NCBI GenBank assembly: GCA_045595785.1
Contig: JAZOBE010000043.1
Span: forward strand, 15,810-79,809
Reading direction: 5' to 3'
Source: Eubacteriales bacterium
Lineage (GTDB): Bacteria > Bacillota > Clostridia > Oscillospirales > CAG-382
DNA length: 64,000 nt
The position numbers and the translations under genes were made by a program. Below the pieces are notes generated by a model. It saw only the letters and a list, made by a program, of their open reading frames with translations. It was not told the DNA's origin and did not search any database. Below are positions 2,019 through 53,997 of the stretch, in pieces. Within the stretch, counting starts at the first letter, position 1. Every line of letters begins with the position of its first letter.

Positions 2019-2037
2019 AGCTTAATAATTACAAATT

Positions 2038-2069
2038 AAGTCTATCACAAACGTGGTAGACTTTTTTGT
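2038..2069 (+). terminator. rho-independent terminator
   Basis: Hairpin aagtctatcac/gtggtagactt followed by a T-run, just after the stop at 2018. Confidence 0.6.
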
Positions 2070-2124
2070 TTAACGATATATCTATAGATTTCTAAAAGCC
2101 GTTCGCTGGACGAACGGCTTTGGG

Positions 2125-2153
2125 TTGACTTAATAAGCAATTTGTGATAAAAT
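2125..2153 (+). promoter_or_regulatory. sigma-70-type promoter candidate
   Basis: TTGACT, 17-nt spacer, TAAAAT with an upstream TG, about 30 nt ahead of the SD and TTG start of the 2187 gene. Confidence 0.45.
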
Positions 2154-2186
2154 ATTTATTTAGAAACAGCATAAGGAGGGAATACG

Positions 2187-4021: not shown

Positions 4022-4033
4022 GGAGAGGCTTTT

Positions 4034-4843: not shown

Positions 4844-5196
4844 ACGGACTTGAGGTATTAAACTACGATGGAAAGGGCTATTTTTCCCACTTTTCTTTTG
4901 AAGAATGGAAGATAGCATATCTCAACCACGCACATATGTTTACACAAGACGGTATTACTTATCTTGAAAGGCATATGCTCACCGACGAAGTGTTTATCCT
5001 TCTTGAAGGAAGTGCTACTCTACTGATGGGCGAGAACGCCGAAGAAGTAAAAATGGAAAAATTTGTTACCTACGTGGTAAAAAAGGCGGCTTGGCATAAT
5101 ATTATCGTATCCGAGGATGCCAAGGTGCTGATAGTAGAGAATAAAGATACGGGCAAGCATAATTCGGAATATCTGCCCTTCAGGTATGAAAAATGA
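4840..5196 (+). CDS. small cupin-fold-like hypothetical protein
   Basis: 118 aa, overlapping both neighbouring genes. The beta-rich pattern (VFILLEGSATLLMGE ... AKVLIVEN) resembles a cupin. The function is not supported further. Confidence 0.4.
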   Translation: MNGLEVLNYDGKGYFSHFSFEEWKIAYLNHAHMFTQDGITYLERHMLTDEVFILLEGSATLLMGENAEEVKMEKFVTYVVKKAAWHNIIVSEDAKVLIVENKDTGKHNSEYLPFRYEK

Positions 5197-6392: not shown

Positions 6393-6436
6393 TAAAACCG
6401 CGTTCGTTCGTTTAACGAACGGCAAAACAAAAACAG

Positions 6437-6470
6437 AAAAAACGCCTTTTTCAAGGGCGTTTTTTGTTTT
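6437..6470 (+). terminator. rho-independent terminator
   Basis: aaaaaacgcc ... ggcgtttttt hairpin followed by a T-run after the LuxR stop. Confidence 0.7.
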
Positions 6471-6593
6471 ATATATAACAAATTACGGTAATTTGGGACG
6501 CGAAAAATTATCTAAAAAATTTTTTATATGGTTCTAACTGTTTTTATGAAAATGCTGTTATACTTTTATCGTAATAATTTAACGAGGTTTTAT

Positions 6594-6896
6594 ATGGAGA
6601 ACACAAAAACAAGAATTTACAATATAGACGGCGACGTACTGCATACTGTTTCCAAATACAACGAAGAGTTTGGAATATGGGTGGAAGAATACGTTGATTT
6701 TGAAAACGTTCCCCGTTACACTCCCAACGGCAGACGATGGCGTAGCGTAACTACCACCAACTGCATTTATTCTCATCACGAGTATAAGGATTGCGGGACA
6801 TGTCCGTATCTGTGTAAAGAAAAAACAGATGACCTTATAGGGGTCTGCTTTAACGAACAGCTTCGTATGGCATCCCAAGAATTAAATCAAGAATAA
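6594..6896 (+). CDS. small Cys/His-rich hypothetical protein
   Basis: The ATG at 6594 has an SD-like ACGAGG 6 nt upstream, so the track ORF's earlier start is less likely. 100 aa containing NCIYSHHEYKDCGTCPYLC. It ends 30 nt before the giant adhesin gene. Confidence 0.5.
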   Translation: MENTKTRIYNIDGDVLHTVSKYNEEFGIWVEEYVDFENVPRYTPNGRRWRSVTTTNCIYSHHEYKDCGTCPYLCKEKTDDLIGVCFNEQLRMASQELNQE

Positions 6897-6926
6897 AAAC
6901 ATTCATATACAGAAAGGTAATTCATT

Positions 6927-12900: not shown

Positions 12901-15449
12901 ACGGCGATTTCAGCTTTGTACTCAAGAATTCCTCCGGCACTCCCATTGATACTGCTTCCAACGTAGGCGGCACCTTCACCTTTGGCGCTATCACCTACAA
13001 CACCGCAGGCACTTATACCTATACCGTTTCCGAGGTTAATGACGGCAAGGGCGGAATCACTTACGATACCACCGTATACACCGTAACCGTAGTTGTAACC
13101 GATAACGGCGACGGCACTCTCTCCGCAACTCAGCAGGTAGTCGGTGCAGCTGCACTTGAGTTCAACAACTCTTACAACGTAACCGTAAACGCAACCGTAG
13201 TTCTTGACGGTGTTAAGTATCTTAACGGCAGACCCCTTAATGCAGGCGAATTTGAGTTTGCTCTGAAGGACAAAAACGGCACAACCCTCCAGACCGTATC
13301 CAACCTTGCAGACGGCACCTTCATATTCGCACCTCTCAGCTTCTCCGCTGCAGGCGAATATAAGTACACCGTAACCGAGGTAAACAACGGTAAGGGCGGC
13401 GTAAGCTATGACGATACCGTTTATGATATTACCGTAACCGTAACCGACGGCGGCAGCGGCGCATACGTTGCAACAGTTGATATCAAGAATAATCCTGAAA
13501 TTATCTTTACAAACAGCTATTCTGTAGGTCCCATTTCCGTTCCTCTTACCGGCAAAAAGATTCTCGAGGGCAGAAAGCTTAACGCAAACGAATTTGAATT
13601 CGCGCTTTATACCACAGACGGCAGACTTATGCAGACTGTTACCAATAAAGCAAACGGCGAGTTTAAGTTCGAGAACATCACCTTCAGCGTAGCAGGCACT
13701 TATACCTTTATCGTAACCGAAACTCTTGGCAAAGTAAGCGGCGTAACCTATGATAATACCGCATATACCGTGAGAGTTATCGTTACCGATAACGGTGACG
13801 GAACCCTCTCTTACACCACTACCGTAAGCAGCAAGGGTGAATTGGTATTCACCAACGTATACAGCGTTAACGAAGTTACCGAAACTATCGTCGGCACCAA
13901 GGTGCTTAACGGCAGAGAACTTTTGAACGGCGAATTCAGCTTCCAGCTTAAGGATGAAAACGGCACGGTTCTCCAGACCGTTTCCAATCTTGCAGACGGA
14001 TCCTTCGCATTTGAACCCATCACTTATACTCAGCCCGGCGTATACAAGTACACTGTAAATGAGGTAAAGGGTGATGCGCCCGCTATAAAGTATGACGGAC
14101 AGAAGTTCTTCGTAACCGTTACCGTAACTGATAACGGCGCAGGACAGCTTGTTACCGATACCTCCATCACCGGCGGCAGAATCAAGTTCGTTAACACCTA
14201 TGCGGCAGAAGAAGTTTCCGTTTCCTTCAGCGGCACCAAGACTCTTGAAGGCAAGGCTCTTGCAAACGGTCAGTTCGGATTTGTTCTTACCGATGAGTTT
14301 GGCAACCTTGTTCAGACAGTTACCAACGATGAAAACGGCGTATTCAACTTTGCTCCCATTACCTATAGCGTAGCAGGGGAATACAAGTACACCGTAACCG
14401 AGGCAAATGACGGTCAGGGCGGTATTACTTATGATGAAACCGTATATACCGTTACCGTTAACGTAGTTGATAATATGGAAGGCAAGCTGGTTGCAGATGT
14501 TACCGTCAGCGGCAACGGCAGCATCGAGTTTGTAAACAGCTACACCGTGTCTCCCGTTTCCGTACCTCTTTCCGCAGTAAAGACTCTTGAGGGCAAAGAA
14601 CTTACACAGGGCGCGTTCGTATTCTACCTTAAGGATGAAAACGGCGCAGTTCTCCAGACTGTTTCCAACAGCGGCGACGGCTCTATCGCGTTCAATGATC
14701 TCACCTTTACCGCAGCAGGAACCTATGTTTACACCGTAAACGAGTTTGTAGGATCTGCAAACGGAATGACCTATGACGATACAGTTTACACCGTAACCGT
14801 AGTTGTAACCGATAACGGCGATGGCACTCTTACTGCAGTTAAGACCGTTGACGGCGGCGAAATCGTGTTTAACAACGTATACGACGCAATTGATGCAGTT
14901 GTTGACCTTGCAGGTAAGAAGGTTCTCAACGGCAGAGAGCTTTTGAACGGCGAATTCAGCTTTGCTCTCACCGATGAAAGCGGCGCAGTTGTTCAGACTG
15001 TTACCAACGATGAAAATGGAGCGTTTGCATTCGATACTCTCACTTTTGATTCCGAGGGCGTATATCAGTACACCGTAACCGAGATCAAGGGTGATGATGA
15101 AACGATCGTTTATGATACCACCGTTTACAACGTGGTTATTACCGTAATAGACGAGGACGGTACTCTTGCCGCAACCGTTTCTCTCGGCGCAGATGAAATG
15201 GTATTCACCAACGCTGTTGATAAGGGCGACGAGTCTGATCCCGACGTATCTGATCCCGACGTATCTGATCCTGACGTATCTGATCCCGACGTTTCAATAC
15301 CTGATGAGTCTGATCCCGATATTTCCGAGCCTGAGGAAACTCCCGAGCTTGGTGATAATTCTCAGTTCTTCGTTTGGGTATCTCTTCTCACCATAAGTGT
15401 TATCGGACTTGCAGTTTTGCGTATTAACAGACGTAAGATTTCCGAATAA
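6927..15449 (+). CDS. giant cell-surface adhesin: signal peptide, vWA domain, SpaA-like prealbumin-fold domains, about 14 isopeptide-type pilin repeats, acidic linker, C-terminal membrane tail
   Basis: N-terminal signal peptide (K-rich, hydrophobic, AAAA). MIDAS motif DNSSS at nt 7326 plus LLTDGETN. Two GxxxxxTGxPxGAxYTVxE modules. Repeats carry GTKxLxGR ... YxYTVxEV ... GVTYD ... FxNxY, which is the Lys/Glu/Asn pattern of Spy0128/FctA-type isopeptide domains. The tail reads SDPDV x4 ... hydrophobic stretch ... RINRRK. Confidence 0.85.
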   Translation: MKIKSVTKKILSLLLVICLILPCIPVISIPFKAAAAPGTGTVVVDPSTADSYTNMLGTAIDGNRYSGRVWFDKSVYAYGSEAQLPLHSDFIGLPLDTIKIDSNFLVVGSAIGSTTSVITTTSTAAYLDVVIILDNSSSMKNTSNGTTRFVKVRDAANKLIQSITSNKNNRLAIVAYSSDSQEILPLDFYNEKANVLTLSETGNYYNRNYQFTASATPVGSSTAIGGKYTGSANGTNVQSGVNQGMKILANAENTSGRIPVVILLTDGETNHAVSNDWYNAASSNITNNNFTYHKQVAVSTLLNAAYMKYLASTNYVTAPVVYGIGVDLGAGSNANVVMDPANTVKSTANGLAKETYDLLEQWKNSSSTVTSNYGGTTWRFPQLPSNYPGTKQDVIDNINYVDKYYNIGSEELSGTFDEILVEINEKAFVPLVDKVVQGEIEVDTPLTYVDFIGDYMEVKEFKAVTLFGKVYSISKSLEAPVITDTVNTDGTVTRKAVTTYVVESGTATNPTLGVSFNVSDAIKITVTETYLAKNVNGVYEKIGVGKQEVRATIPSIVLPLIYDKVSNDQGDISYESNRGEVVPLRLYYTVDIADEVIDSNGDVITDLISSDYLANNTNTNGSVNFYPGQYGVMNTIETINGVTGLFKGDAHAAATPALDNRYYYYQNNYPVYISATNKNGSAITWDKDEYGVLYYQGNGIDKTLNDNYKTEYLLYSDVSSLSDTDLVYTMVAFYRPTSGGKGEAVGYLTYNDWQYIKDSLAYYDNVNKVYINGYSGGAYETSETEGHHVSAGIVDSYITAKGLKKSDIICVLGIGAWRTSRLHNMEVHKTTNESGTAEFTVVPTHNEDALHDGSLVSWLGNNGKLTLAPQQGISITKTVTEAVAGAETEFVFTVTVSGTDFTPKFIDQNGNSFNSVPVVKDTSLNKTTITLTLKAGETAYVTGLPTGASYTVAEALSNYYSASYTNEAGTVKANEMVYVSVENAPKAYGDLVITKEVYHPFDGNLDNEFDFTVIISGVTQWEADNKLALPAGATYVYAGGVVTVSGIKVKGDGSATITGIPAGAAYTVTELPETGFELDTSKTVGANGTISANTVINAQFVNNYVPNPPVNADITVSGTKTVQANALITETYTFKVQKLDESTGTYVDVSGAVASVDITATIGGAIESYTISLNETYTNVGTHYYRVVEVGGTTDGMTYDTTEGLFKVTVSDPGVIDGILEVNVEAIADSTVSPTTGGFDVKVDFINVYAVDSTHADIVIKKVLNNNTGVSIPLNIFEFALSSGGVVIDTVHTDALGNATIRIPIDAEGTLVYTLTEVNGGMPGMTYDSKEYTVTIVTTTVGGKLSAEVTVSDTTDDIALFTNAYFLTSAIVSIDGTKILDNKAITDGQFEFIIKAADELYAPITSGWSQTVSNIGGGFTFVLPEYTKVGTYRYVVNEVIPAAAVNNLLDGITYDTSVYHVTVVVTDDGNGKLASAVQLTKVGTGDVTDIVFTNTYNVTGTQTITFEGDKILIGRELHGSEFTFNIDVYKDGVKQPSLTTTNLSTGVIQFPEFTYTASDIGVEYKYVISEVLPTGAVGGKYQGVTYDDTVYEVIVNVTDNGVGGIQLVVSGDDEKALHFENTYSAEQVSVSLSGDKTLNGRDIEDGEFEFVLKNEVGSVIETVSNVADKFNFSPITYTAAGVYKYTVSEVKGTKGGVTYDDTVYTITVTVTDNGKGILTASTVIDGIGTLSFTNNYNTQNVVIEIPGNKTLVGRPIAEDEFLFGVYHATVSGGVYTINGDVIVTTTNKADGTFVFENGVFTSPGTYHYVVKEINEGELGITYDTKQFNIKVVVTDDLNGNLVADLTVENGPIEFNNTYVPVETSVTFSGTKVLNGRSLADGEFKFVLKDSTDAVIQTVSNVGGAFTFDALVYNAVGGPYTYTVSEVNEGKGGVTYDSTVYTVTVKVVDDGHGSLVTEVTGGTSFAFTNDYSADPVDHAISGTKVLSGKALADGDFSFVLKNSSGTPIDTASNVGGTFTFGAITYNTAGTYTYTVSEVNDGKGGITYDTTVYTVTVVVTDNGDGTLSATQQVVGAAALEFNNSYNVTVNATVVLDGVKYLNGRPLNAGEFEFALKDKNGTTLQTVSNLADGTFIFAPLSFSAAGEYKYTVTEVNNGKGGVSYDDTVYDITVTVTDGGSGAYVATVDIKNNPEIIFTNSYSVGPISVPLTGKKILEGRKLNANEFEFALYTTDGRLMQTVTNKANGEFKFENITFSVAGTYTFIVTETLGKVSGVTYDNTAYTVRVIVTDNGDGTLSYTTTVSSKGELVFTNVYSVNEVTETIVGTKVLNGRELLNGEFSFQLKDENGTVLQTVSNLADGSFAFEPITYTQPGVYKYTVNEVKGDAPAIKYDGQKFFVTVTVTDNGAGQLVTDTSITGGRIKFVNTYAAEEVSVSFSGTKTLEGKALANGQFGFVLTDEFGNLVQTVTNDENGVFNFAPITYSVAGEYKYTVTEANDGQGGITYDETVYTVTVNVVDNMEGKLVADVTVSGNGSIEFVNSYTVSPVSVPLSAVKTLEGKELTQGAFVFYLKDENGAVLQTVSNSGDGSIAFNDLTFTAAGTYVYTVNEFVGSANGMTYDDTVYTVTVVVTDNGDGTLTAVKTVDGGEIVFNNVYDAIDAVVDLAGKKVLNGRELLNGEFSFALTDESGAVVQTVTNDENGAFAFDTLTFDSEGVYQYTVTEIKGDDETIVYDTTVYNVVITVIDEDGTLAATVSLGADEMVFTNAVDKGDESDPDVSDPDVSDPDVSDPDVSIPDESDPDISEPEETPELGDNSQFFVWVSLLTISVIGLAVLRINRRKISE
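10255..15215 (+). repeat. about 14 tandem coding repeats (roughly 95-110 aa each) inside the adhesin gene
   Basis: I counted 15 successive F-x-N-x-Y/V domain-boundary motifs in the translation. The repeats are diverged at the DNA level but clearly homologous at the protein level. Confidence 0.8.
15233..15337 (+). repeat. 15-bp tandem repeat encoding (S-D-P-D-V)n
   Basis: tctgatcc(c/t)gacgt(a/t) occurs four times in perfect register (15233-15292), followed by three degenerate units. Confidence 0.9.
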
Positions 15450-43018: not shown

Positions 43019-43105
43019 GCGGGTATGGCGGAATTGGCAGACGCGCTAGATTCAGGTTCTAGTGGGGGCAACTTCGTGTAGGTTCAAGTCCTATTACCCG
43101 CACCA
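43019..43105 (+). tRNA. tRNA-Leu (anticodon CAG), with encoded CCA
   Basis: Acceptor stem GCGGGTA/TACCCGC. Anticodon stem CTAGA/TCTAG with loop TTCAGGT. Long variable arm (class II). T-loop GGTTCAAGTCC. 3' ACCA. Confidence 0.95.
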
Positions 43106-43113
43106 AAGCATTC

Positions 43114-43232: not shown

Positions 43233-43397
43233 TTAGGTATCCTTTTCAGATTGTTCCTTTTTCCACTGTTCAAATTCTTGTCTGCCTTCTTCGGATTCAA
43301 AGAAGTCTACTATGTCCGGCAGAAAGCATTTTGCCAATGCTTCTATTTCATCTTCAGGTATGTGGGATTTGAAAATGATTTTAACCTCTCTGCCCAT
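43233..43397 (-). CDS. 54-aa acidic hypothetical protein downstream of the integrase (below the ORF-track cutoff)
   Basis: ATG with SD GAGGAGGGGA, 16 nt after the integrase stop. Translation: MGREVKIIFKSHIPEDEIEALAKCFLPDIVDFFESEEGRQEFEQWKKEQSEKDT. Confidence 0.3.
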   Translation of the reverse strand: MGREVKIIFKSHIPEDEIEALAKCFLPDIVDFFESEEGRQEFEQWKKEQSEKDT

Positions 43398-43412: not shown

Positions 43413-44384
43413 TTATGAGTCTTTCAGAAATTCCGAATAGAACTTTTTAATGTCGTTGCGGTGGTGTCCCATACGCTCGCTCATCTCTTTATCAATCTGG
43501 CGTTCAGTCATACTGCTCTCGGCAATCAAGCGGCGGCGATTCTCCTGAAAGTACAGGTGTCTAAGTCCGTGCCAGGAGGGTCTTTTGATTCTGGGTTTAC
43601 AGTCAGGAGCAACATAATCACACCTATCGGGATCTACAAACTTTTTGCTATGATTGCTGCGCCAATTCTGTAACGAAGCCTTCTCCTTCTTTACGCTGTG
43701 TTTGTGGTTGTCGCAGATCAGATAATCCTTTGACTTTTTACCGCTTGCACGAAGATAAGCAACAATCTCATTTAGAATTTTCTCCTGAATCGGACGATCC
43801 ACAGGAATATCTCTTACAAGACCACCCTTGGTGTTCTTGACGTTCAACTGCTTATAGCGGATAGCATCCTCCAACTGATACAAACGGAGCGTAGCGGCTT
43901 CTTCAAAGCGTAAGCCATAGTATCTTGACAGATAGGCTTGAATCACAACATCATAGCGATTCATCGAACGGGCAACCTTGATCATCATATCAAACTCTTC
44001 GGGTAAAAACGCACGGTCAAATTCGTAGTCGTTCTTTTCGGATATACCCAAATCTCTGTTTGACGGCAGAATGTTTTTGCTGTGCGTCAGACTGTGATAG
44101 TGTCTGATTGCCGACATTTCGGTGCGGATGTAGCTGTTCAAACACTCTCTGTCGAAGAAACTTTCGATATACGGATAAATATATTTAGCCGATATATTCT
44201 TGAGATTCTTTAACTCGGTGTTTTCACCAAGCCATTTACAGAAACGATACATACCATCTTCATAGCGTTCGATACAACCGATACTGTTGATGTTACTGCT
44301 GGCTTTAAGATGATCTGCCTGCCCTATGAGATTTTTGGCTTTGTTCGCATTTCTGACCTTTCGTTGTTCTTCCGTAAGTGCCAT
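43413..44384 (-). CDS. tyrosine-type site-specific recombinase/integrase
   Basis: Start taken at MALTEEQ (SD GGAGG 7 nt upstream). Catalytic pattern: GLRFEEA (Arg), HGLRHLY (HxxR), MGHHRNDIKKFY (His/Tyr). Confidence 0.85.
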   Translation of the reverse strand: MALTEEQRKVRNANKAKNLIGQADHLKASSNINSIGCIERYEDGMYRFCKWLGENTELKNLKNISAKYIYPYIESFFDRECLNSYIRTEMSAIRHYHSLTHSKNILPSNRDLGISEKNDYEFDRAFLPEEFDMMIKVARSMNRYDVVIQAYLSRYYGLRFEEAATLRLYQLEDAIRYKQLNVKNTKGGLVRDIPVDRPIQEKILNEIVAYLRASGKKSKDYLICDNHKHSVKKEKASLQNWRSNHSKKFVDPDRCDYVAPDCKPRIKRPSWHGLRHLYFQENRRRLIAESSMTERQIDKEMSERMGHHRNDIKKFYSEFLKDS

Positions 44385-44521
44385 AGGCATTCCTCCTTTC
44401 TCTGAAATTGGCCTTTTGATTTCAGGTAAATGAAATATGAAAAAAGAGATTTGATTTGGCAAGTAAATTATGAAAGAAAATATTATCCATAAAATATACT
44501 CAAACCCGATTACCGAAAATG

Positions 44522-44550
44522 TTGATTTGTTTCCGTTTGCGTTGTATAAT
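44522..44550 (+). promoter_or_regulatory. promoter candidate
   Basis: TTGATT, 17 nt, TATAAT upstream of the DeoR-type gene. Confidence 0.55.
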
Positions 44551-44599
44551 ATCGGTGTCAGATCTGATAATACATTTGAATTAATTTGGAGGTATGGCT

Positions 44600-45376
44600 A
44601 TGTTTATGGAAGAACGCCATCAAGAAATTGCAGATATAATAAAAGCTAATGGAAAAATCACCGTTTCGGAAATTACAAACAAATATGGTATATCCGATGA
44701 ATCAGCTCGCAGAGATCTTCGATTACTTGAACAAAAAGGGATTTGTAAGCGAACTCATGGTGGGGCTATTTTAGCTTCACAGGTTGGATTGAAAGCTCCT
44801 GCCGATAGAGATTTCAGCTCTATGCAGATTTTAGATAATTACAAAGAAATCGCACGTGTTGCCGCAAGCAAAATCAAAGAAAACGATGTTATTTATCTTA
44901 CAAGTGGTTCTTTTGGATATATAATGCTTTCATATTTGCCTATGGATATGCATTACACCGTGGTTGTGAATTCGGTGGATATAGGTAAAGAATTAAGGAA
45001 CTTTGAGAATATTGAAGTATATATGATTGGTGGCAAAATGCGACAAAGCGGTTCGATAGTGGACAGTTTTGCAACCGAATTTGTAAGTAAATTGCATTTT
45101 GACCTTTGCTTTATTACGGGTTCGGGCTTGACTGCAGATTGTGGTTTATCCAACGGTACAGACGAAACTGCAACTTTCCAACGAACTGTTATCGCCAACA
45201 GTAAAAATAAATATCTTTTAATGCCAAGTGCCAAAATCGGCAATAATGCTTTTGTTAAGGTTTGCGACGTAGATGTTTTTAACTGTGTTATCACCGATTG
45301 TGATTGCGTTGAAGATCAGATTCAAGCTATCGAAGAAAAGGGCGTAGAAGTTATTGTTGTTGAGGAATCGAAATGA
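44600..45376 (+). CDS. DeoR/GlpR-family transcriptional regulator
   Basis: N-terminal winged HTH (RHQEIADIIKANGKITVSEITNKYGISDESARRDLRLLEQKG) plus a C-terminal DeoR sugar-binding-like domain. The ATG at 44600 has better SD spacing than the one at 44594. Confidence 0.8.
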   Translation: MFMEERHQEIADIIKANGKITVSEITNKYGISDESARRDLRLLEQKGICKRTHGGAILASQVGLKAPADRDFSSMQILDNYKEIARVAASKIKENDVIYLTSGSFGYIMLSYLPMDMHYTVVVNSVDIGKELRNFENIEVYMIGGKMRQSGSIVDSFATEFVSKLHFDLCFITGSGLTADCGLSNGTDETATFQRTVIANSKNKYLLMPSAKIGNNAFVKVCDVDVFNCVITDCDCVEDQIQAIEEKGVEVIVVEESK

Positions 45377-45561
45377 CCCGCGAGCAGAAGCTACGTAATC
45401 TCATTCTTGATAAATACAATAGTCTTAGGCAGTTCGCAATGGAAGCGGATATTCCGTACAGTACGCTTATGACTTTGTTATCTCGTGATATCGGCGGTGC
45501 TTCTTTTGACGTTGTGATGAAAATATGTAAAAAACTTGAAATAGATCCATTAGAGCTATAA
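45373..45561 (+). CDS. small XRE-family HTH protein
   Basis: 62 aa containing LRQFAMEADIPYSTLMTLLS...KICKKLEIDP. An ATGA overlap couples it to the DeoR gene. Confidence 0.65.
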   Translation: MTREQKLRNLILDKYNSLRQFAMEADIPYSTLMTLLSRDIGGASFDVVMKICKKLEIDPLEL

Positions 45562-45570
45562 AAAAATTCG

Positions 45571-45609
45571 GCGGGGCAGGAGCTTCAATCTCCTGCGCCA
45601 CCTTTTAAA
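45571..45609 (+). terminator. terminator candidate
   Basis: gcaggag cttcaat ctcctgc core hairpin with flanking G/C pairs, followed by ttttaaa. Confidence 0.5.
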
Positions 45610-45629
45610 TAGAAGGTCATTTTTGCCGT

Positions 45630-46087
45630 CATTCCGAAAGGATGGTCATAATCATATCGGAAATGTTTATTCAGCCGACTGTTTGATGTTTAATTGGTAT
45701 CATTCCGAAGTGTTATCCTTTGAACATCAAACAGCCGGAACACGCCGTAAGGCGTGCATACATAAATCAATAACAAATCCAAAGGGAATCATCTGTATAT
45801 GTATATCATCTTAAATCCGTTCCGAAATTATTTATCATTTTTCATTCCGAAATGAGCGCAAAGCATAGTTCTCCCATTGGCAGTTTTATCGGTTTTACCT
45901 GCCGTTACTCCCGTTTTCTTTTTCAAGGGTTCCGGAATGCTTTGCGAACAGGGGCTTTTTGTTCGCCACCGGGCTCAGTTTCTATTTCCCTGCGAGAAAT
46001 AGAAACTGGCCCAACGATGGTCATATCTATCATTCCGAAGGGTAAATCATAAGTCATTCCGATTCGCAAATCATTTTTATTCCGAAG
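45630..46087 (+). repeat. dispersed same-strand copies of the decamer TCATTCCGAA in non-coding DNA
   Basis: Exact copies start at 45630, 45701, 45843 and 46031. One- or two-mismatch copies start at 45818 (ccgttccgaa), 46055 (tcattccgat) and 46078 (ttattccgaa). A palindromic ttccggaa lies at 45931. Confidence 0.85.
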
Positions 46088-46104
46088 AGAGAATCATATT
46101 AAAT

Positions 46105-46510
46105 TGTTCCCATTAAAGTTGGTCAGTACTATGAGGCATACGCCCCAACGCATACCTGCCGCTTGACAGGTGCCCTGACGGGCTACGCCTACACCACACA
46201 CTAGCTATTAGATAGTCTACCGCTGAACTCGGCAGGGTGGCGGGGTTTCGATCTTCCATTGAAAGCCCATAACGTTGTCTGCTCAAAGGCAGATAAGCGG
46301 CTCTTCGCAGATGAGATAATTTAGTACGACAAGCTTCGTACAATTTTTGCTGCTCAACAAGTGAGCTTATTATCTCAACGCCCCGTTGTCTTCCGCACGG
46401 GTGGCTGTCAGCAAATGGTGCAATATACGTACAAAACCGTTGCACATCCATACGCTCTTCCATTTACCATACGTCGGTCACTCCAGCCATACTGTGACCG
46501 CACCTGTTTT
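46105..46510 (-). ncRNA. candidate structured RNA of unknown class (strand assignment tentative)
   Basis: A GC-rich block inside AT-rich non-coding DNA. Many nested complementary segments are visible, for example gagataat...attatctc enclosing hairpins gctca/tgagc and gtacga/tcgtac, also cctgccg...cggcagg, gccc/gggc and aggtatgcg/cgtatgcct. The only ORF there has a non-protein-like composition. Confidence 0.3.
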
Positions 46511-46517
46511 GAACATC

Positions 46518-46544
46518 TACAATTTGACTTGCTTTTTCAACATT
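46518..46544 (-). other. 8-codon mini-ORF (MLKKQVKL) with a strong SD, immediately upstream of the candidate RNA
   Basis: AGGAGGAATTGAA ATG TTG AAA AAG CAA GTC AAA TTG TAG. A second AGGAGGAATT copy lies 24 nt further upstream. Confidence 0.3.
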
Positions 46545-46681
46545 TCAATTCCTCCTATCTGTATTACTGTAATTCCTCCTTAGTGTATTTAAAGAGTTCG
46601 TATGTAATATGGAAGAGAGCATTGCGAAATGCAAGTAAAAATACAATTTAATTGGAAAATGAGAAGAAGGATTAACGAGAA

Positions 46682-46710
46682 AGGCAGAGAGTGGTTTACT
46701 CTCTGCCTTC
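46682..46710. terminator. hairpin (possible terminator or element boundary)
   Basis: aaggcagagag tggttta ctctctgcctt forms a perfect 11-bp stem. Confidence 0.45.
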
Positions 46711-47097
46711 TTCATGTGAAATTTAATAATTCAAAAAGTCATAAGTGTCGAGTTTGCTGATATATTATAGAATTGACATAATAATCATGTAAATTCTTCT
46801 CAAACCATGCAATATAACATTGATTCTAATTTAGGTTCAAAATATAATATGCAGATTCGTTAAATGCTTATAGAACAGTTTTACAAAAAGAACATTCTGG
46901 TATTGAATATGTCAAAATAAAAATTCTAACCGATGAGAAAATATGCCCAAATGAAAAAGTACATTTGATGGGATAACAGCACGGTTCAAAAACGATAATC
47001 ATATCACGCAAGAAAACCAGTGTATATAACTTTCACACAAAATTCTAGTTCTTATATTTCCGTTCAAAATAGCATTGCAATAATCTCTTCAAAACTA

Positions 47098-47979
47098 TTA
47101 TATTAATTTGAATAAATCAATTGTTTCTCCCATCTGGTTGTTATTTACGTTTACATCATTAATAGCAGGTGCGCTCTGCAAACTATTACCTTCAGAAACC
47201 ATAACTTTTTGCTTTTGCTTGACATGTTCCTTTATTTCTCTAAAAATAGTTTCATAATCTTCTGGTTTAATCATCTTGTACTTCTCGCTAAATCCAACAG
47301 GCGACTTTCCAATGGGAAACATGTCACGTAGCCTAGACATGTCAGCTCCTTCGCCAATGCCTAACGGAAAAATATGCAAATCGCCATTTATGACACGCTC
47401 ACGAATATTGGCAAACTCTGGGCGAGGGTCATCGGTTGGAGTTCCATCAGTCATAAATACGAGAATAGGCGTGTAATAATCATTATCGGCATTTCTTAAT
47501 TCGTTACGCATTTCATCTAATTGCGCAAGTGCAGTTCGTATTCCATCTCCCATGGAAGTTTCAGCCTTTTCAACTGAACATTCACAAGAATGAATACTCA
47601 AAGCTTCACAATCTAAAAAATCATATTTTACATTAGCAAATCGGCTATATGTAACAATGGATACAGCGACTTGACGACATAATTCCGTATCTCGTTTTAA
47701 ATCAGTTAAAAGACCACAAAGAGTCTCGTTCATTTTGTCAATCTTCTTATAATGTGCGTATCCTGGCCGAATATCATTTAAACTAAAATAGTTTACATTA
47801 TGTCCATCCGAGAATCCCCTGCCTGTATTGCGTTTCAAGCCGCCCTCTTGTATCCACCATTCATCCATAGACTGACTTACATCTACGCAAAAACAAATAA
47901 GTGCACGTGGGTCCCCATTGATTAGCAATCTACGCTGTTGGCTAAAATATTCACTTGAATAGTATGCTTCGTTTGCCAT
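47098..47979 (-). CDS. TerY-like von Willebrand factor A (vWA) domain protein
   Basis: MIDAS DVSQS (D33, S35, S37), later ETSMG and FMTDGTPTD. 293 aa, cytoplasmic (no signal peptide). SD GAGGAG. This is the last gene of the three-gene operon. Confidence 0.8.
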   Translation of the reverse strand: MANEAYYSSEYFSQQRRLLINGDPRALICFCVDVSQSMDEWWIQEGGLKRNTGRGFSDGHNVNYFSLNDIRPGYAHYKKIDKMNETLCGLLTDLKRDTELCRQVAVSIVTYSRFANVKYDFLDCEALSIHSCECSVEKAETSMGDGIRTALAQLDEMRNELRNADNDYYTPILVFMTDGTPTDDPRPEFANIRERVINGDLHIFPLGIGEGADMSRLRDMFPIGKSPVGFSEKYKMIKPEDYETIFREIKEHVKQKQKVMVSEGNSLQSAPAINDVNVNNNQMGETIDLFKLI

Positions 47980-48001
47980 AATCGTCTCCTCATTTTAATT
48001 A

Positions 48002-50152
48002 TTAATATCTTCGGTTGCGACATTTAGGACATCGAGTCGGTAAATTAAGTCCTTTCTTTTTATAAAACTCAACTTCACCATTAGTAATGGGGAAACGACA
48101 ACCACAGTATCGATTGCTGCAAGAACGCCACATATAAATATCATTATTCCATTTTTCGCGTTCGCGCTTGGCATCATTCAACTTGATTTTGAAACATTCA
48201 CCGCAAACATTAACCTTAAGATTGCGTAGTTTATCTTCAAATTCTCGCATTTGATATATTGGAACTTCACGACCACAATTGCCACATTTCGTAGTACGTT
48301 TTTTACAATCTCTACACCAACGTTGATCATACCAATTAAAATCCATTTTCCCTATATCGTGAACAATTTTGGTACGATTCGTATAATAAAACTCTCGTCC
48401 GCAACACTCGCATTTAAAATGCACTGCTGACTTATCGTTAGCACAAGGAAGGCATATCCTATATCCTCTTTCCCATATATTAATCGTTTCTTTATGAACT
48501 TGAACATTATGCATAAAGTAAAAATTAGGATGTTCTTGTCCGCAATGTTTGCAACGTACAAAAATCCTCTTATTATCTCTACGAAAAGTTTTGGGAAATA
48601 TATTGCATGAATCGGATTTATCTAAAGTAGATAGACTTCTATTAAAATCTCTAACTATATTGAGCCAATCTTTCGCCTTTAATCTTTTGTTAGGAACAGC
48701 ATATTTACCATTTGGGTTAAAAGTATTAAAAAAGGCCTCGCACATTCTATACGGTAGATGATCCCATACAATACGCCATATACCACTAGGACGCTCTGCA
48801 TCTACAGAACGCCTCATACCACCAATACCGAACGGAAAGGTCATGTTGATAATACTAATTCGTTCATCTGTCCCTTTTGATTTAGCATACGGAAATTTCC
48901 CTGGCATCATTAGCATAAATGTCAACAACGCAACTTGATAATTTTCTTGATCTGCTGTATAAAGAAGACGCGGATAATCATCACGTAACAATTCGGGAGG
49001 GGTAAATGTTTGATTTCGTGAAATAGCTGGATATCCTTCAATTTGCCAACAATCTGTATCAACGAAATATACCTCATCAGGTTTTTCAACATATATTGTG
49101 GCTGGATTTATACATCCGAAGTATAACCCATAATTATGCATACTGCAAATTTTATCAAGAATCGTTATTGCTAACGTACAAAGATCTTGCCTATCCCATC
49201 GTGGAAAATATTGAAACAATCCCGTGACTCCATTTAATACTGAACGTGTCAGCTGTATCCCTTTAGAAGCTGGCACCAATATACCGACAAATTCTCCAAT
49301 ATCATTTTTTAAGATATCTACCGGCCAACATACCCCTGGTATTTCTACTTTTCCCTTTATCATCCTTCGAGCTTTATTCTCCCAAATGTCTATTCGAAGC
49401 GATTTTAAAGTGTATATTTTTGCAAAAAATCCACTATCATTAGTTGCATAGGTTATTGAAGTATGGTCTGTCATCATTGCATCTTTTAAATAAAAAACAG
49501 TACGGCAACACTCTGCTATAACCCTTTCACCATTGGTTGGAACACTGCTAGTTGCATTAACGACCGAATTAATAGATACAAGTTCAGTAGTTAACTTAAA
49601 AAGATTTTCAGTTTTGTATTCAATTTGCTTTTTTGTGTAAAGTGCTTGAAGTTGCCCTTCTTGATTCATACCATACCATCGCAATTGTAATCCTTTAGAA
49701 TTTGCCGATGATTTAGCATCGTAACCATTATCACCGCTAGCGGTAAGAAAAACAATCTTCCAATCAAGATATTGGTCAGCAATTTTCTCAAAGCATGCAT
49801 TTAGATCATTCCCCGCAAGTTCTCGATAATCTTCAGAAATCAGATCCTTACATTCTTCTTTAGTGAGTTTCATTATTTCAAAGCTCGGCACATAAAAAAA
49901 TTTCGTGGTATGCATAGAGTCTTTATTAACATGCCACTCATTTGCAAATTTAGAGAAAGCAGTACTTTTAACAAATGAAGCATCTACAAACACTCGAATT
50001 TGTTGTGATTTTATCAAATCACTTATTGTTGTCCCAAATTTTGGCCAATTCTCGAGCTTATTATTTGATTTTTCATTATGCGATAAAGAAGGTTCTTTTC
50101 TTTCGTTCTCATTTTTTATCTCTGCTTTATTGAATAAAGTTGTAAATGCCAT
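48002..50152 (-). CDS. multidomain protein: PIN-like N-terminus, protein-kinase-like core with a substituted catalytic loop, four C-terminal zinc-ribbon units
   Basis: Kinase-like landmarks: FAK245, E258, H339-NYGLYFG-C347, VD365TD, TPPE387, MPGKFPY. Acidic PIN-like pattern: VFVD57AS, FE92I, GND116, SGD141. CxxC pairs: C534/C537-C567/C570, C581/C584-C613/C616, C623/C626-C650/C653, C683/C685-C708/C711. The last unit resembles the F..T..E..FY..KG...P.RC..CR zinc-ribbon. Confidence 0.65.
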   Translation of the reverse strand: MAFTTLFNKAEIKNENERKEPSLSHNEKSNNKLENWPKFGTTISDLIKSQQIRVFVDASFVKSTAFSKFANEWHVNKDSMHTTKFFYVPSFEIMKLTKEECKDLISEDYRELAGNDLNACFEKIADQYLDWKIVFLTASGDNGYDAKSSANSKGLQLRWYGMNQEGQLQALYTKKQIEYKTENLFKLTTELVSINSVVNATSSVPTNGERVIAECCRTVFYLKDAMMTDHTSITYATNDSGFFAKIYTLKSLRIDIWENKARRMIKGKVEIPGVCWPVDILKNDIGEFVGILVPASKGIQLTRSVLNGVTGLFQYFPRWDRQDLCTLAITILDKICSMHNYGLYFGCINPATIYVEKPDEVYFVDTDCWQIEGYPAISRNQTFTPPELLRDDYPRLLYTADQENYQVALLTFMLMMPGKFPYAKSKGTDERISIINMTFPFGIGGMRRSVDAERPSGIWRIVWDHLPYRMCEAFFNTFNPNGKYAVPNKRLKAKDWLNIVRDFNRSLSTLDKSDSCNIFPKTFRRDNKRIFVRCKHCGQEHPNFYFMHNVQVHKETINIWERGYRICLPCANDKSAVHFKCECCGREFYYTNRTKIVHDIGKMDFNWYDQRWCRDCKKRTTKCGNCGREVPIYQMREFEDKLRNLKVNVCGECFKIKLNDAKREREKWNNDIYMWRSCSNRYCGCRFPITNGEVEFYKKKGLNLPTRCPKCRNRRY

Positions 50153-50168
50153 TTTTCCTCCATTAACA

Positions 50169-51431
50169 CTAATTCACAATAAAAGATTTTATTTCATCGA
50201 GTAATGCTCTGGTATTGGGTTCGCAATTAGGAATCGATTCCAACTCATAATATATATTTTTTACTTTTTGTAGTTCGCTGTTAAAACCACTTTTTGATTT
50301 ATTGTAAAAGAATAACAATAAACTTCGACCAATTGTTTCATTATGATTAGATTGCCAAACATTTTCTGCTTCTCTCACCCATTCGCCTTTCATAAATTCA
50401 TGCCGCTGGTTATGTGCAAGATTTTTTACTAGATTAATAAGCCTGTTTGTTTTATTGTCTAAACTATCATAATCACAAATCATTGGAAAATAATACTGTC
50501 TATCGATGTTATATACATATGCAGAGTCTTCAATAAAACCAGTTTTAGGTGACCAACGATAAGCTCGAACATAAGTGTTATTATCATTTCGCCATTCATA
50601 ATATATTACGCCAATATCTGAGTAGGAGTCTCCCGATTGTGGTGCAGATTTACCACATGCGATACTCGGAATCGTTCGATTAGGCAAGGAAATTGTCGAA
50701 ATAGGATTATTGGCATATTTATGCATATCTCCATGAAGATATGCACTAATGCATCTTCGATCTATAACGCTGTGTATTCTGTCAATGTGACTTGAAAATA
50801 GCGTTTCAATCCAATGATGTCCTAACATTAATGTGGGAAGATTAATGTCAATTGAACAGTTCGATAATGAATTAATGTCAACTATTTGTTTATGCATATC
50901 TCCATCACTAATTAATGCAGTGTTAAGCAACAAAATATTTATCAGATTGTTCCAAACGATACAATTAACGCCGCTAGGATTAGTAACTCTCCCGTCTGTC
51001 ACGCCAGAGCTGGCATAAAAGTTACGCGCAAAAATGTCATATTCAACAAATCCATCATACAGTGACTTTGTGCCATTTAAGTATTGCGAGTATATATTAT
51101 AGTTACTTTCAGAATGATCACATATAGTCCTAATAGCTTCGCGCCTTCCATCATAGTTATTCACATCATGATTTCCAGGAACTAAAAATGTATCTTTTTT
51201 ATCGATATTAAATGCTGTTAAAATCGACTCTAAATATTTCATTGAAACATTAAACTCTGTTTTATATTTTGCATGGCGAAAATCTCCCGTTGCTATAAGA
51301 AATTGTGGGGAGATTTTTTTTGCTAATTTGTTATAATCTTCTGAAATAAAAGTTGTATCTGCTTCTGAAAATACATGTAAATCAGATATTTGTAGCCAAG
51401 ATGCATTAACATGTTTGCGATTGGTATTCAT
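50169..51431 (-). CDS. calcineurin-like metallophosphoesterase with a C-terminal extension
   Basis: Motifs in canonical order: ISDLH (DxH), ATGDFRH (GD), PGNHD (GNHD), LGHH, YLHGDMH (GHxH-like). An unassigned helical tail of about 120 aa follows. Confidence 0.85.
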   Translation of the reverse strand: MNTNRKHVNASWLQISDLHVFSEADTTFISEDYNKLAKKISPQFLIATGDFRHAKYKTEFNVSMKYLESILTAFNIDKKDTFLVPGNHDVNNYDGRREAIRTICDHSESNYNIYSQYLNGTKSLYDGFVEYDIFARNFYASSGVTDGRVTNPSGVNCIVWNNLINILLLNTALISDGDMHKQIVDINSLSNCSIDINLPTLMLGHHWIETLFSSHIDRIHSVIDRRCISAYLHGDMHKYANNPISTISLPNRTIPSIACGKSAPQSGDSYSDIGVIYYEWRNDNNTYVRAYRWSPKTGFIEDSAYVYNIDRQYYFPMICDYDSLDNKTNRLINLVKNLAHNQRHEFMKGEWVREAENVWQSNHNETIGRSLLLFFYNKSKSGFNSELQKVKNIYYELESIPNCEPNTRALLDEIKSFIVN

Positions 51432-51869: not shown

Positions 51870-53117
51870 TTAATTAAGTTTTCCCCAATAGCAAACGGTT
51901 ATTATTGTTGTGTTGATTTTTCCGTCTTTGGAGTATTTATCGAAAATTGCTTTTACATCGCTAATAAAACACTCGTAATCTTCGCTGGATTTGTCAGGTG
52001 CAAAGGAAGTTGACAACATCCCACCGCAAAACTCCTCGAAAGTTTGTTGTATACTGTTATCGAATTTATTGGTATTATAATTATTTTCGCCAAACAGATT
52101 ATTCGCACGTTCTTTATAAGAAATTCCCGATGTTTTTTGTTTTTTCTTTGCACGATATGATATTTTTAGATTTGTCAGTTCCTCATCAAACTCATCTCCC
52201 CCGAACACATTCCACAGCAAAAACACATAACCGTCTTTTTTCAAAATTCTGCGCATTTCGGTATGTGTTTTCTCATTATCAAACCAATGGAAAGATTCAG
52301 CAGCAGTTATTATATCTACGCTGGAATCAGGAAGCGTTGTTTGCTCCGCAAAAGAAGCGATGGAAATATAATTGGCGTGGCAACTCATTATATCCTCGGC
52401 GCTTTTTCTCATTTGTCTGTTGGGTTCGATAGAGTATAGCGTTTTTGCACTTTCTACAAGCAATTTCGAGAGTTTTCCTGTGCCGCTACCTATGTCTGCA
52501 ATAACGGGCGTTTCGATTTGCGCCAAAATGAGTTCAACCACCGCAGAAGGATACGAAGGTCTATAATTTTTATAATTAGAGGTTTGCAAAGTAAATAGCG
52601 AGCAATCGAAGCGATATTTATTAATTTGTCGCTTTAAGGAATCAGAAGTAAAATATGCATCAATATCGGCTTCGTCAACGGAATATCCGTTCAACAAACT
52701 TTGTATAACGGCTTCAGCAAGTAATAATTCTTTGCCGGATTCGTCAAGAAAACAATTCTCAATATCGAAATTCATTTTATTGTTGATTCCTTCGATTGCG
52801 CCTTTATAGAAAGTTGAATATTCACCAAAACAAGATTTCAAGCTTTCAATCGCAACTATTCCCACCTTTAATTTCTCGATGTCTACTTTTCTGTTCTTGC
52901 GAATAACTAACTGACCACCGCTTAAAATTTTATCGGTTGTGGTGTCCAAGACATCTGCTAAGTCAAGCAATATAGAAGCATCGGGAAGATTTTCGCCATT
53001 CTCCCATTTAGAAACAGCTTGGAACGTTACCGAAAGTAATTCCGCCAAGCCTTTCTGCGAAAGTCCTTTTTGTTTGCGAAGCGTTTGAATGTAATTGCCG
53101 ATGTTCTTTGTGTTCAT
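51870..53117 (-). CDS. XRE-family HTH fused to a class I SAM-dependent methyltransferase
   Basis: N-terminal IQTLRKQKGLSQKGLAELLSVTFQAVSKWENG. MTase motif I IADIGSGTGKLS and post-I/II regions downstream. Confidence 0.8.
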   Translation of the reverse strand: MNTKNIGNYIQTLRKQKGLSQKGLAELLSVTFQAVSKWENGENLPDASILLDLADVLDTTTDKILSGGQLVIRKNRKVDIEKLKVGIVAIESLKSCFGEYSTFYKGAIEGINNKMNFDIENCFLDESGKELLLAEAVIQSLLNGYSVDEADIDAYFTSDSLKRQINKYRFDCSLFTLQTSNYKNYRPSYPSAVVELILAQIETPVIADIGSGTGKLSKLLVESAKTLYSIEPNRQMRKSAEDIMSCHANYISIASFAEQTTLPDSSVDIITAAESFHWFDNEKTHTEMRRILKKDGYVFLLWNVFGGDEFDEELTNLKISYRAKKKQKTSGISYKERANNLFGENNYNTNKFDNSIQQTFEEFCGGMLSTSFAPDKSSEDYECFISDVKAIFDKYSKDGKINTTIITVCYWGKLN

Positions 53118-53379
53118 TTTACGCCCTCCGTTTGTTGATTACGAATATATGATACCAAAAAACACAGAAAAAACAATAACGGTATTCTTGAAGTTGCTCA
53201 ACTTAAAATAGAATTCGTCGACTTATTCTATTGCATTTTTATTTGCTTTAAAGTGTATGACTAACCTATAAGGCGAAGATAAGTAAAATAATAGGTTATT
53301 GTTTTATAATTATTGATAAGATATAATATGATTAAAAGCAGGGCTCAGCTTAAATATTAAATTTCAAAGGATTTGTAAT

Positions 53380-53997
53380 ATGTTATATTTAACGTCAAAT
53401 TTAAAAAAGTATCGGATTTTAAAAGGATTGACACAAGAAGAATTAGCTAATTATTTGAATATCACACCTCAAAGTATTTCAAAATGGGAACGTGGTGAAA
53501 CATATCCCGATATAACATTACTACCTGCATTAGCGAACATTTTCGAAACGAGTGTAGATTTGCTAATCGGTATGGATGTAATGCGTGCAGATGAAACAAA
53601 ATATAATATTCACAAAACTGCGAATGGTTTTATGAAAATCAGCGATTATGAATCAGCTGAAAAAGTGTACCGCGACGCTCTTCTAATATATCCGAATAAT
53701 TCGGGAATGCTTCTTGGACTTGGAAGTGTATTAGCCTTGAACAATAAAACCGAAGAATCCATTAAATTTATAGAAATAGGATTACCGTTGTCAAACAATG
53801 AAAAACAAAAAGCCACTATGCGTGCAACACTTTGTTTCCTATATCAAAAACACGGAGAAATAGACAAAGCGCAAGCTCTTGCTTCTGAATTGCCGCATTT
53901 AAGAGAAAGCCGAGAAATCATTCAGCCTATCATTATGAAAAATCCCTGTATCGATGAAATTGACAAAGAACTCAAATCGATTTTATTAGGAGAATAA
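53380..53997 (+). CDS. XRE-family HTH fused to a TPR-like helical domain
   Basis: N-terminal LKKYRILKGLTQEELANYLNITPQSISKWERG. The C-terminal half has TPR-like A/Y/L periodicity (AEKVYRDALLIYPNNSGMLLGLGSVLA). Confidence 0.7.
   Translation: MLYLTSNLKKYRILKGLTQEELANYLNITPQSISKWERGETYPDITLLPALANIFETSVDLLIGMDVMRADETKYNIHKTANGFMKISDYESAEKVYRDALLIYPNNSGMLLGLGSVLALNNKTEESIKFIEIGLPLSNNEKQKATMRATLCFLYQKHGEIDKAQALASELPHLRESREIIQPIIMKNPCIDEIDKELKSILLGE

Follow-up and report, generated by a model that had tools for sequence, protein, structure and literature searches.

A predicted 1-kb structured non-coding RNA gene beside a tyrosine integrase on genomic islands of gut Clostridia

In the 64,000-nucleotide window analysed here, from a contig of the Eubacteriales bacterium assembly GCA_045595785.1, a GC-rich block on the minus strand (46105–46560) had been singled out by a sequence-only reading as a candidate structured RNA or leader. 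Comparison with homologous DNA suggests that this block is the 5′ domain of a structured non-coding RNA gene of about 1 kb that lies beside a tyrosine integrase gene on islands of gut Clostridia. The block is real but was drawn too narrowly: it is the best-conserved portion, and just the 5′ third, of a non-coding unit of about 1.04 kb that runs from 46639 to 45560 on the minus strand (BLASTN homology from 46638 down to about 45561), so that the conserved unit extends about 530 nt past the block to a terminator. Read 5′ to 3′, the unit features a promoter-like box, a Shine–Dalgarno (SD) sequence with a very short open reading frame (mini-ORF), more than 15 helices, seven UUCGGAAUGA boxes and an intrinsic terminator, and its 5′ and 3′ edges are the same in all homologous loci. 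The block had been described as GC-richer than the AT-rich DNA around it, and the GC content is indeed 0.45–0.515 over 46000–46500 against 0.27–0.34 over the non-coding flank at 46500–47200. The unit is conserved within fixed boundaries, is under purifying selection, has a covarying structure specific to one strand, is linked to the integrase and holds no conserved ORF. It is likely that it constitutes a functional structured RNA gene of the island, and we lean towards the fuller statement in which such a gene also acts through a scaffold mechanism.

Homologous DNA was reached through a 116-aa ORF that lies in the block and is annotated in three public assemblies. About a dozen distinct homologues, 64–97% identical, were found in Clostridia genomes and gut metagenomes. 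An exact 20-mer scan over one genome per prokaryote species yielded five further carriers in GTDB, namely metagenome-assembled genomes (MAGs) of a Clostridia bacterium from roe deer, an Oscillospiraceae bacterium, a Ruminococcus and two Acutalibacteraceae; a Megasphaera sequence from the same scan (L016) was discarded as a 25-nt chance match. Divergent copies, 64–80% identical, reside on contigs encoding more distant relatives of the integrase, and a degenerate-pattern scan of metagenomes returned more copies in that identity range. The unit also occurs on one IMG/VR contig. Viral sequences scanned again, this time with a pattern from the central domain, had no hits, BLASTN of 45400–47100 against phage and plasmid collections gave no match, and BLASTN of the core against 60 relatives of the same order gave chance matches of 22–40 nt only. 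The unit is present as one copy in its own genome. Many DNA sequencing runs contain 0.24–0.29 of the sampled words, from which no habitat claim is drawn. One copy (L031, 3216–4001) is internally deleted; it lacks about 560 nt, keeps the promoter region, the last repeats and the terminator, and lies beside an intact integrase gene.

Purifying selection on the unit is apparent from its slow divergence, which is much slower than that of the four-fold degenerate sites of the integrase gene. Between the window and the loci L014, L015 and L032, respectively, those sites are 0.59, 0.68 and 0.37 identical and the RNA unit is 0.905, 0.83 and 0.64 identical, with values of 0.955 and 0.90 for the 5′/central core. 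By these figures, the constraint on the unit is similar to that on the first and second codon positions of the integrase.

Comparison of homologues likewise defines the structure and its strand. For 10 window-type sequences RNAalifold returned 139 pairs, 98% of them canonical and many of them invariant G-U. A wider alignment, comprising the 3′ two-thirds of the unit in 13 sequences from about five clusters, contained 111 consensus pairs, of which 96.3% were canonical and 35 showed compensatory changes. When the partners were slid by 1–3 columns the number of compensatory pairs fell to 5–11, and none of 500 within-pair shuffles reached the observed canonical or compensatory figure. On the plus strand the canonical share of these pairs drops to 85%, from 96% on the minus strand, because about 13% of the paired cells are G-U, and it is these G-U pairs that assign the structure to the minus strand. 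Consensus energies for the minus and plus strands were −126 versus −94 kcal/mol and −87 versus −56 kcal/mol. At one hairpin the tetraloop is exchanged among GUCA, GCAA, GUAA, UUCG and others (GNRA and UNCG types), as is typical of RNA. The comparison of BLASTN homologues for covariation, which the sequence-only reading had itself proposed, thus bears out its call of a structured RNA, as do the G-U strand bias, the loop exchanges, the above-neutral conservation and the lack of a conserved ORF.

The 5′ structured domain (46300–46506, minus strand; RNAalifold on 10 homologues) contains helices at 46488–84/46407–03, 46468–60/46418–10, 46455–40/46434–20 and 46401–397/46386–82, followed by a three-way junction closed by 46381–69/46320–07 that encloses hairpins 46366–52 and 46341–24. 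This domain is found in the window-type, L040 and L044 families; in the L032, L049 and L045 families unrelated sequence stands in its place, which makes the domain the family-specific portion of the unit. The central domain (46084–46299, minus strand) is conserved in most families, with L045 aligning poorly. It features a three-way junction closed by CGCCAC/GUGGUG (46242–37/46197–92) with hairpins 46235–17 and 46216–00, and further hairpins at 46183–72, 46170–55 and 46147–32. Compensatory changes occur in 4/6, 4/5, 3/4, 2/6 and 2/5 pairs of the central helices, and the hairpins are followed by a near-invariant single strand, ACUGACCAACUUUAAYGGGAACAAUUU.AUAUGA.

Of the pairings that had been proposed from the window sequence by itself, three were retained in the comparison. 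The three-way junction closed by GAGAUAAU/AUUAUCUC, with hairpins GCUCA/UGAGC and GUACG/CGUAC, is supported by homologue changes, which are wobble-compatible and in a few cases compensatory; the GCCC-GUCA-GGGC hairpin becomes GUUC-UUCG-GAAC in the L032 family, and GGUCAC/GUGACC becomes GGUCAU/AUGACC in L018. The proposed long-range pair between CCTGCCG and CGGCAGG was not retained: each arm makes its own covarying local hairpin, one changing from CUGCCG...CGGUAG to CUGUCG...CGACAG and the other from CCUGUC-AAGC-GGCAGG to CUUGCC-GAAU-GGCAAG. Likewise, the hairpin AGGUAUGCG/CGUAUGCCU is specific to the window sequence, and the conserved hairpin at this site is UGGGG.../...CCCCA. A 17-bp hairpin changes across families from GGCUCAGUUUCUAUUUC/GAAAUAGAAACUGAGCC to CGAUGCCGUUUCUAUA/UAUAGAAACGGCAUCG.

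The 3′ half of the unit is marked by seven UUCGGAAUGA-type boxes (46086–77, 46063–54, 46039–30, 45851–42, 45826–17, 45709–00 and 45638–29, minus strand). Between them, over 45629–46086, lie covarying helices at 46012–45972, 45757–40 and 45737–23/45690–76 and a domain closed by 45945–39/45864–58. Homologues carry 6–9 boxes in a single orientation with 23–25 nt phasing within clusters; the core is invariant across families, and the boxes are mostly in unpaired linkers of the consensus fold. Four exact copies of the 10-nt box occur in the window against 0.26 expected, and four of the six copies of YTTCGGAATGA in the 2.1-Mb genome fall in the unit, the other two being unrelated. No box or anti-box was found in the integrase mRNA. 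The intrinsic terminator (45560–45602, minus strand) forms the 3′ edge of conservation and consists of a 13-bp GC-rich stem, GGUGGCGCAGGAG/CUCCUGCCCCGCC (45602–45590/45582–45570), a 7-nt loop and a U-run at 45566–45560. Its stem covaries fully, to GGCUGCGGCGGAAG/CUUCUGCCGCAGCC in L032 and GGCCGCAACAGUAG/CUGCUGUUGCGGCC in L037, with the U-run kept each time.

The 5′ edge of conservation is a promoter-like box, TTTACTTGC (46639–46631, minus strand), within an element spanning 46606–46639 that offers a −35 hexamer TTGCAT (46634–46629), a 17-nt spacer and a −10 hexamer CATATT (46611–46606). The arrangement of TTTACTTGC, about 17 nt and then (C/A)ATATT is kept in every homologue family, and the sequence further upstream is wholly different; we infer that this region is a promoter with a transcription start near 46600. 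The same box heads both the RNA unit and, near 44467–44459, the integrase gene, and it also stands after the terminator in L014, L015, L032, L037, L040, L044 and L045. It could serve as a shared operator or as an extended −35 element, through which the RNA and the integrase would be regulated together.

Downstream of the box is a leader (46517–46581, minus strand) with two SD-like AGGAGGAATT copies at 46580–46571 and 46556–46547, which had been correctly noticed in the window, and the mini-ORF MLKKQVKL* (ATG TTG AAA AAG CAA GTC AAA TTG TAG). This 8-codon frame, said to be served by the second SD, is present as described, but its coordinates are 46543–46517, one base off those given before. Homologue leaders contain one or two SD-like AAGGAGG elements and then an ATG at ideal spacing. 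The position of SD and ATG is kept in all families, and the frame varies from 2 to 14 codons with no conservation of the peptide, being ATG-TTG-TAA in most window-type homologues and 8–14 unrelated codons in others. The conserved feature of the leader would therefore appear to be ribosome loading and not the peptide. In the STAB-SD elements of Bacillus, ribosome loading stabilises the 5′ end, and by analogy an SD with a 2-codon ORF seems to fit a ribosome-dependent 5′ stabiliser better than a sensor. Strong SD sequences near the 5′ end of a Firmicute transcript, accompanied or not by a very short ORF, also occur upstream of recombination genes in leader-peptide attenuators such as Tn916 orf12. 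The suggestion that the leader is a translation-sensing attenuator fails because the mini-ORF is only 2–14 codons long and its peptide is not conserved. A leader-peptide attenuator was accordingly rejected as a candidate: the homologues share no conserved leader peptide or regulatory codons, no terminator/antiterminator pair or adjacent alternative hairpins follow the mini-ORF, the RNA runs on for about 1 kb with its terminator some 950 nt downstream, and the gene that comes next carries a promoter box of its own, with inserted genes in between in two lineages.

The possibility that the block is the decayed remnant of a protein-coding gene, either of the 116-aa R/S/C-rich ORF (46113–46463) or of another frame, deserves next to no credence. 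Gene callers did annotate this ORF in three public assemblies (P0001–P0003), but these entries are merely the same DNA element at 85–93% identity. Only the window and L006 have the ORF in uninterrupted form; indels of 1, 2 and 4 nt break its frame in L014, L015, L018, L019, L040 and L044, and it has no Pfam, PHROG or PADLOC match. Amino-acid identity is no higher than nucleotide identity, and substitutions track base-pairing and not codon position. With the frame broken, no protein family and substitutions driven by pairing, the decayed-gene reading was rejected, and the earlier judgement that a protein product is unlikely stands. No ORF of at least 25 aa is common to all families.

The unit defines an RNA family that is absent from Rfam, as far as a comparison that was not exhaustive extends. 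In the 64-kb window only the tRNA-Leu (43019–43102) passes the gathering score in Rfam 15, and a permissive scan of 45400–47100 with E up to 10 gave chance-level matches to microRNA (miRNA), small nucleolar RNA and small RNA models, none of them in the block. For five divergent homologues, with E up to 1, only tRNAs and a FinP-like match on the terminator hairpin were returned. T-box, riboswitch, RNase P and group I/II intron models had no Rfam match in the unit, and the scan, which included ROOL, GOLLD, OLE, raiA and HEARO, agrees with the earlier statement that the block could not be matched to a familiar riboswitch, tmRNA, RNase P or T-box consensus. ARAGORN reported the tRNA-Leu at 43019–43105 only and no tRNA- or tmRNA-like (transfer-messenger RNA) domain in the unit; a tRNA-like RNA was discarded as a candidate, the junction at 46242–46192 being three-way and not four-way. 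A literature search, which was not exhaustive, found no description of an integrase-linked large RNA or of the box sequence, the hits being unrelated papers and lists of primers.

In kind, the unit resembles the large ornate RNAs GOLLD and ROOL (RF01998, RF03087). These are likewise multi-helix, non-coding RNAs, of 600–800 nt or more; they occur in gut, rumen and Firmicutes settings, where prophages and other mobile DNA carry them close to tRNA genes and integrases. In contrast to them, the unit has no covariance-model match at the E values given above for the window and for the five homologues, is longer, has a family-specific 5′ domain and 6–9 invariant 10-nt boxes, and is fixed upstream of one integrase clade. 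Size, the repeated box and the integrase partnership therefore set it apart.

The integrase is a 324-aa tyrosine recombinase (43413–44384, minus strand; start at M27 of a 349-aa ORF) with weak or distant Integrase_1, XerD and phrog_216 matches, in which the R, K, HxxR and Y motifs are legible in the alignment. Its own TTTACTTGC-type box, mentioned above, is accompanied by better hexamers (TTGCCA-17-TATATT) than those of the RNA unit. Among 41 integrase homologues, the examined ones of 55–95% identity have the RNA unit upstream, and the unit is absent from L038, which encodes a 47%-identical integrase. The integrase gene lies downstream of the RNA on the same strand in almost all loci, and the genes upstream vary. 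The remark that no downstream gene follows the block therefore does not hold for the family; in the window the integrase gene has been displaced by a 1.1-kb insertion (44470–45560, plus strand) encoding, according to Pfam, a DeoR regulator (44594–45376) and an HTH_26 protein (45373–45561). The insertion fills precisely the gap from the RNA terminator to the integrase promoter. L014, L015, L040 and L044 lack it and have the integrase gene immediately after the terminator, and in sequencing run X15 a contig joins 44469 to 45561, skipping it. L018 has a different insertion with a different helix–turn–helix (HTH) gene at the same place, which suggests a hotspot. With an identity of only 26% between families, the HTH_26 proteins encoded near the unit are not a conserved partner.

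Synteny with genus relatives ends at the 3′ end of a tRNA-Leu(CAG) gene (43019–43105, plus strand, by ARAGORN), at 43105–43107, and the genes to the right are missing there; the unit therefore lies in an inserted island with this tRNA gene as its insertion site. Across loci the 3′ end of the target gene is about 310–370 nt beyond the integrase gene, the targets being tRNA-Leu(CAG) in the window and L045, tRNA-Ala(CGC) in L031 and L032, and tmRNA in L033, L035, L036 and L046. An identical integrase, P0039, is found at tRNA-Ala(CGC) in L031 and L032 and at tmRNA in L033, L035, L036 and L046; the gap between integrase and target is 369 nt in both L032 and L033, and the RNA units of L032 and L046 are 100% identical over 1160 nt. 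One element thus uses two target genes, probably via their shared alanine-tRNA-like 3′ end. The rest of the window contains no repeat of the tRNA-Leu region of at least 13 nt by which the far end of the island could be placed. A 54-aa ORF (43233–43397, minus strand) separates the integrase gene from tRNA-Leu; DNA homology to L014 reaches down to 43220 and thus includes this ORF, which is conserved in that locus. It has no family match, and its product could be an excisionase-like accessory protein.

Transcription of the unit, ribosome loading, protein binding and a biological role are suggested by the sequence features described above, from which the following mechanism may be put together. 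The RNA would be transcribed from its own promoter, starting near 46600, to the terminator at about 45560; the 5′ SD and mini-ORF would load a ribosome, probably shielding the 5′ end; the body would fold into more than 15 helices, exposing 6–9 single-stranded UUCGGAAUGA boxes; and the strong terminator would stop the RNA just ahead of the integrase promoter. The boxes, being invariant, unpaired, in one orientation and over-represented, look like a protein-binding array, and the RNA could then be a multivalent protein-binding scaffold or sponge, in which they would bind several molecules of a single protein. The simplest candidate is the island integrase or a small accessory protein, since the integrase, along with the small ORF behind it, is the only protein that accompanies the RNA throughout; a host factor is just as possible. 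Such a scaffold would control island excision, integration or maintenance. We offer this mechanism tentatively, as a possibility that follows the multi-motif logic of the CsrB/RsmZ sponges, in which many short GGA-containing motif copies are likewise spread across a structured RNA. UUCGGAAUGA does contain GGA, but it is not the CsrA consensus from systematic evolution of ligands by exponential enrichment (SELEX), is mostly in unpaired linkers instead of hairpin loops, and recurs at a far lower density; nothing was found that ties the unit to CsrA, a weak PrrB_RsmZ match (E 0.29) lying outside the unit on the other strand. A bolder version, in which the RNA is a working partner of the integrase and the boxes replace arm-type DNA sites or accessory proteins so that it assembles, sequesters or times several integrases, is a long shot; if true, site-specific recombination of these islands would be RNA-dependent. 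The type III toxin–antitoxin system ToxIN also presents a repeat-bearing RNA, a terminator and a partner protein gene in that order, but the repeats of the unit are not tandem identical, the RNA is mostly unique structured sequence, and the partner is a tyrosine recombinase with all catalytic motifs instead of a ToxN-type endoribonuclease.

Several observations weigh against the unit being a transcribed, functional RNA and against the scaffold mechanism. The folding-energy check against shuffled controls, which the sequence-only reading had suggested, gave for the single 456-nt sequence a minimum free energy z-score of just −1.1 on the minus strand and −3.0 on the plus strand; single-sequence folding is thus not above chance, and support for the structure comes from the homologue comparison. 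Homologue diversity is itself modest, with about five sequence clusters, and the covariation counts are inflated because these homologues are related. The promoter hexamers match the consensus at only 3–4 of 6 positions each and a consensus promoter/terminator scan reported neither the promoter nor the terminator of the unit, so the promoter call stays a prediction. L006 and L017 appear to be decayed copies without an integrase in the DNA at hand. Three RNA libraries, each from a different study, yielded short unstranded contigs that lie on 46113–46476 at a depth of 4–7 (2–7 over all RNA-library contigs), which is compatible with transcription of the unit and lends it weak support, not proof. 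Similar contigs from RNA libraries also cover the integrase gene, and DNA carry-over is possible. The contigs of X17, X18 and X19 cover neither the leader nor the repeat half, and no inference is drawn from this. Nothing points to a particular box-binding protein, and direct repeats with 23–25 bp phasing also resemble DNA iterons.

The last point leads to the reading, which we consider improbable, that the unit is a cis element at the level of DNA, either a replication or transfer origin or a set of recombination accessory sites, with the boxes serving as double-stranded iterons or arm-type sites and the hairpins forming when the DNA becomes single-stranded in the course of transfer or rolling-circle replication. 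Such islands cannot move without cis sites, the boxes all point the same way as direct repeats and show phasing of the iteron type, and covariation by itself cannot separate RNA from single-stranded DNA. However, the integrase gene is the only one that is conserved together with the unit, to the exclusion of any Rep, relaxase or primase gene; no DnaA box with at most one mismatch occurs in 45560–46639; and the distance from the unit to the tRNA junction, 1.3–2.4 kb, is too great for arm-type sites. The share of G-U among paired cells and the GNRA/UNCG exchanges are typical of RNA, conservation begins at a promoter-like box and ends at a covarying terminator followed by a U-run, and known oriT and sso elements are far smaller than 1 kb. 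We find it rather doubtful, though less so than the DNA element, that the unit is a long cis-acting leader of the integrase operon, in which transcripts begun at the upstream promoter would as a rule end at the terminator and a box-binding factor or ribosome traffic on the mini-ORF would permit read-through and so control excision in the manner of Tn916. The RNA and the integrase gene are on the same strand with the terminator 60–100 nt before the latter, the RNA has the SD and mini-ORF at its 5′ end, and the same TTTACTTGC box precedes both. The integrase gene nevertheless has its own conserved promoter-like box, with the better hexamers, after the terminator; genes in the opposite orientation (about 1.1 kb) have been inserted between the two in the window and in L018 without decay of the RNA; neither the length nor the peptide of the mini-ORF is conserved and no alternative antiterminator pairing is seen near the terminator; and 1 kb of conserved structure far exceeds the need of known attenuators.

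A role as a guide RNA that specifies the tRNA target for the integrase, as a bridge RNA would, is very improbable. A structured non-coding RNA is encoded directly upstream of a recombinase gene in a mobile element, much as the IS110 bridge RNA and IS1111 seekRNA are encoded beside theirs, and the 5′ domain of the unit varies between families. Furthermore, the 10-mer CAAAGCATTC at the tRNA-Leu/island junction (43104–43113) recurs in a conserved helix region of the RNA (45944–45935), no other short match of note being shared by the attachment region and the RNA, but this is within chance, with about 0.5 ten-mers expected by arithmetic and a mean of 2.1 nine-mers in shuffles. The recombinase here is of the tyrosine type and not DEDD/serine, the RNA is about five times longer than those of IS110 and IS1111, and no target complementarity was found. 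An identical integrase (P0039) with an identical RNA (L032, L046) is used at both tRNA-Ala and tmRNA, and tyrosine integrases recognise attachment (att) sites in tRNA genes without RNA. A protein-binding structured RNA, in the form of the tentative scaffold above, remains our preferred reading of the unit.

The genes that accompany the unit differ between islands. Upstream of the RNA in the window is an operon (47098–51431, minus strand) encoding a 420-aa metallophosphatase, a 716-aa protein with a C-terminal treble-clef zinc finger and a VWA protein; the metallophosphatase has weak matches to the PADLOC entry 'Effector endonuclease'/PDC-S60 and to an NCBIfam anti-phage phosphoesterase. The region 46640–50200 is absent from all nine genus relatives, and the operon is a candidate for a defence system among the cargo of the island. 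An HTH–methyltransferase fusion (415 aa) and an HTH–TPR protein (205 aa) at 51870–53997, with PADLOC RmrA/HTH matches, may be further defence or regulatory cargo. Cargo in other loci includes LRR/Zn-ribbon proteins, a C5 methylase, GmrSD, DUF5050 and giant surface proteins. On the IMG/VR contig L056, classed as viral, two giant surface proteins (2032–10799) with dockerin, LRR_5, Listeria-Bacteroides and collagen repeats are encoded beside the RNA and the integrase. A perfect 12-bp hairpin, AAGGCAGAGAGT/ACTCTCTGCCTT (46681–46709), lies in the window between the promoter of the RNA and the VWA gene; it has chance miRNA-type Rfam matches and is probably the terminator of the upstream operon. The window also contains a 2840-aa ORF at 6927–15449.

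Bacterial non-coding RNAs of this size and complexity are rare, and OLE, GOLLD, ROOL and raiA each opened structural and functional work. The significance of the unit is limited by its narrow distribution and modest diversity, and its transcription and function are predictions. It pairs a structured core with a repeated single-stranded box, beside one clade of integrases on islands with defence and surface-protein cargo. Should the unit act on the recombination module, it would add a new layer to the control of island mobility; should its partner be a host or phage protein, it would count as a new sponge RNA borne by a mobile element.

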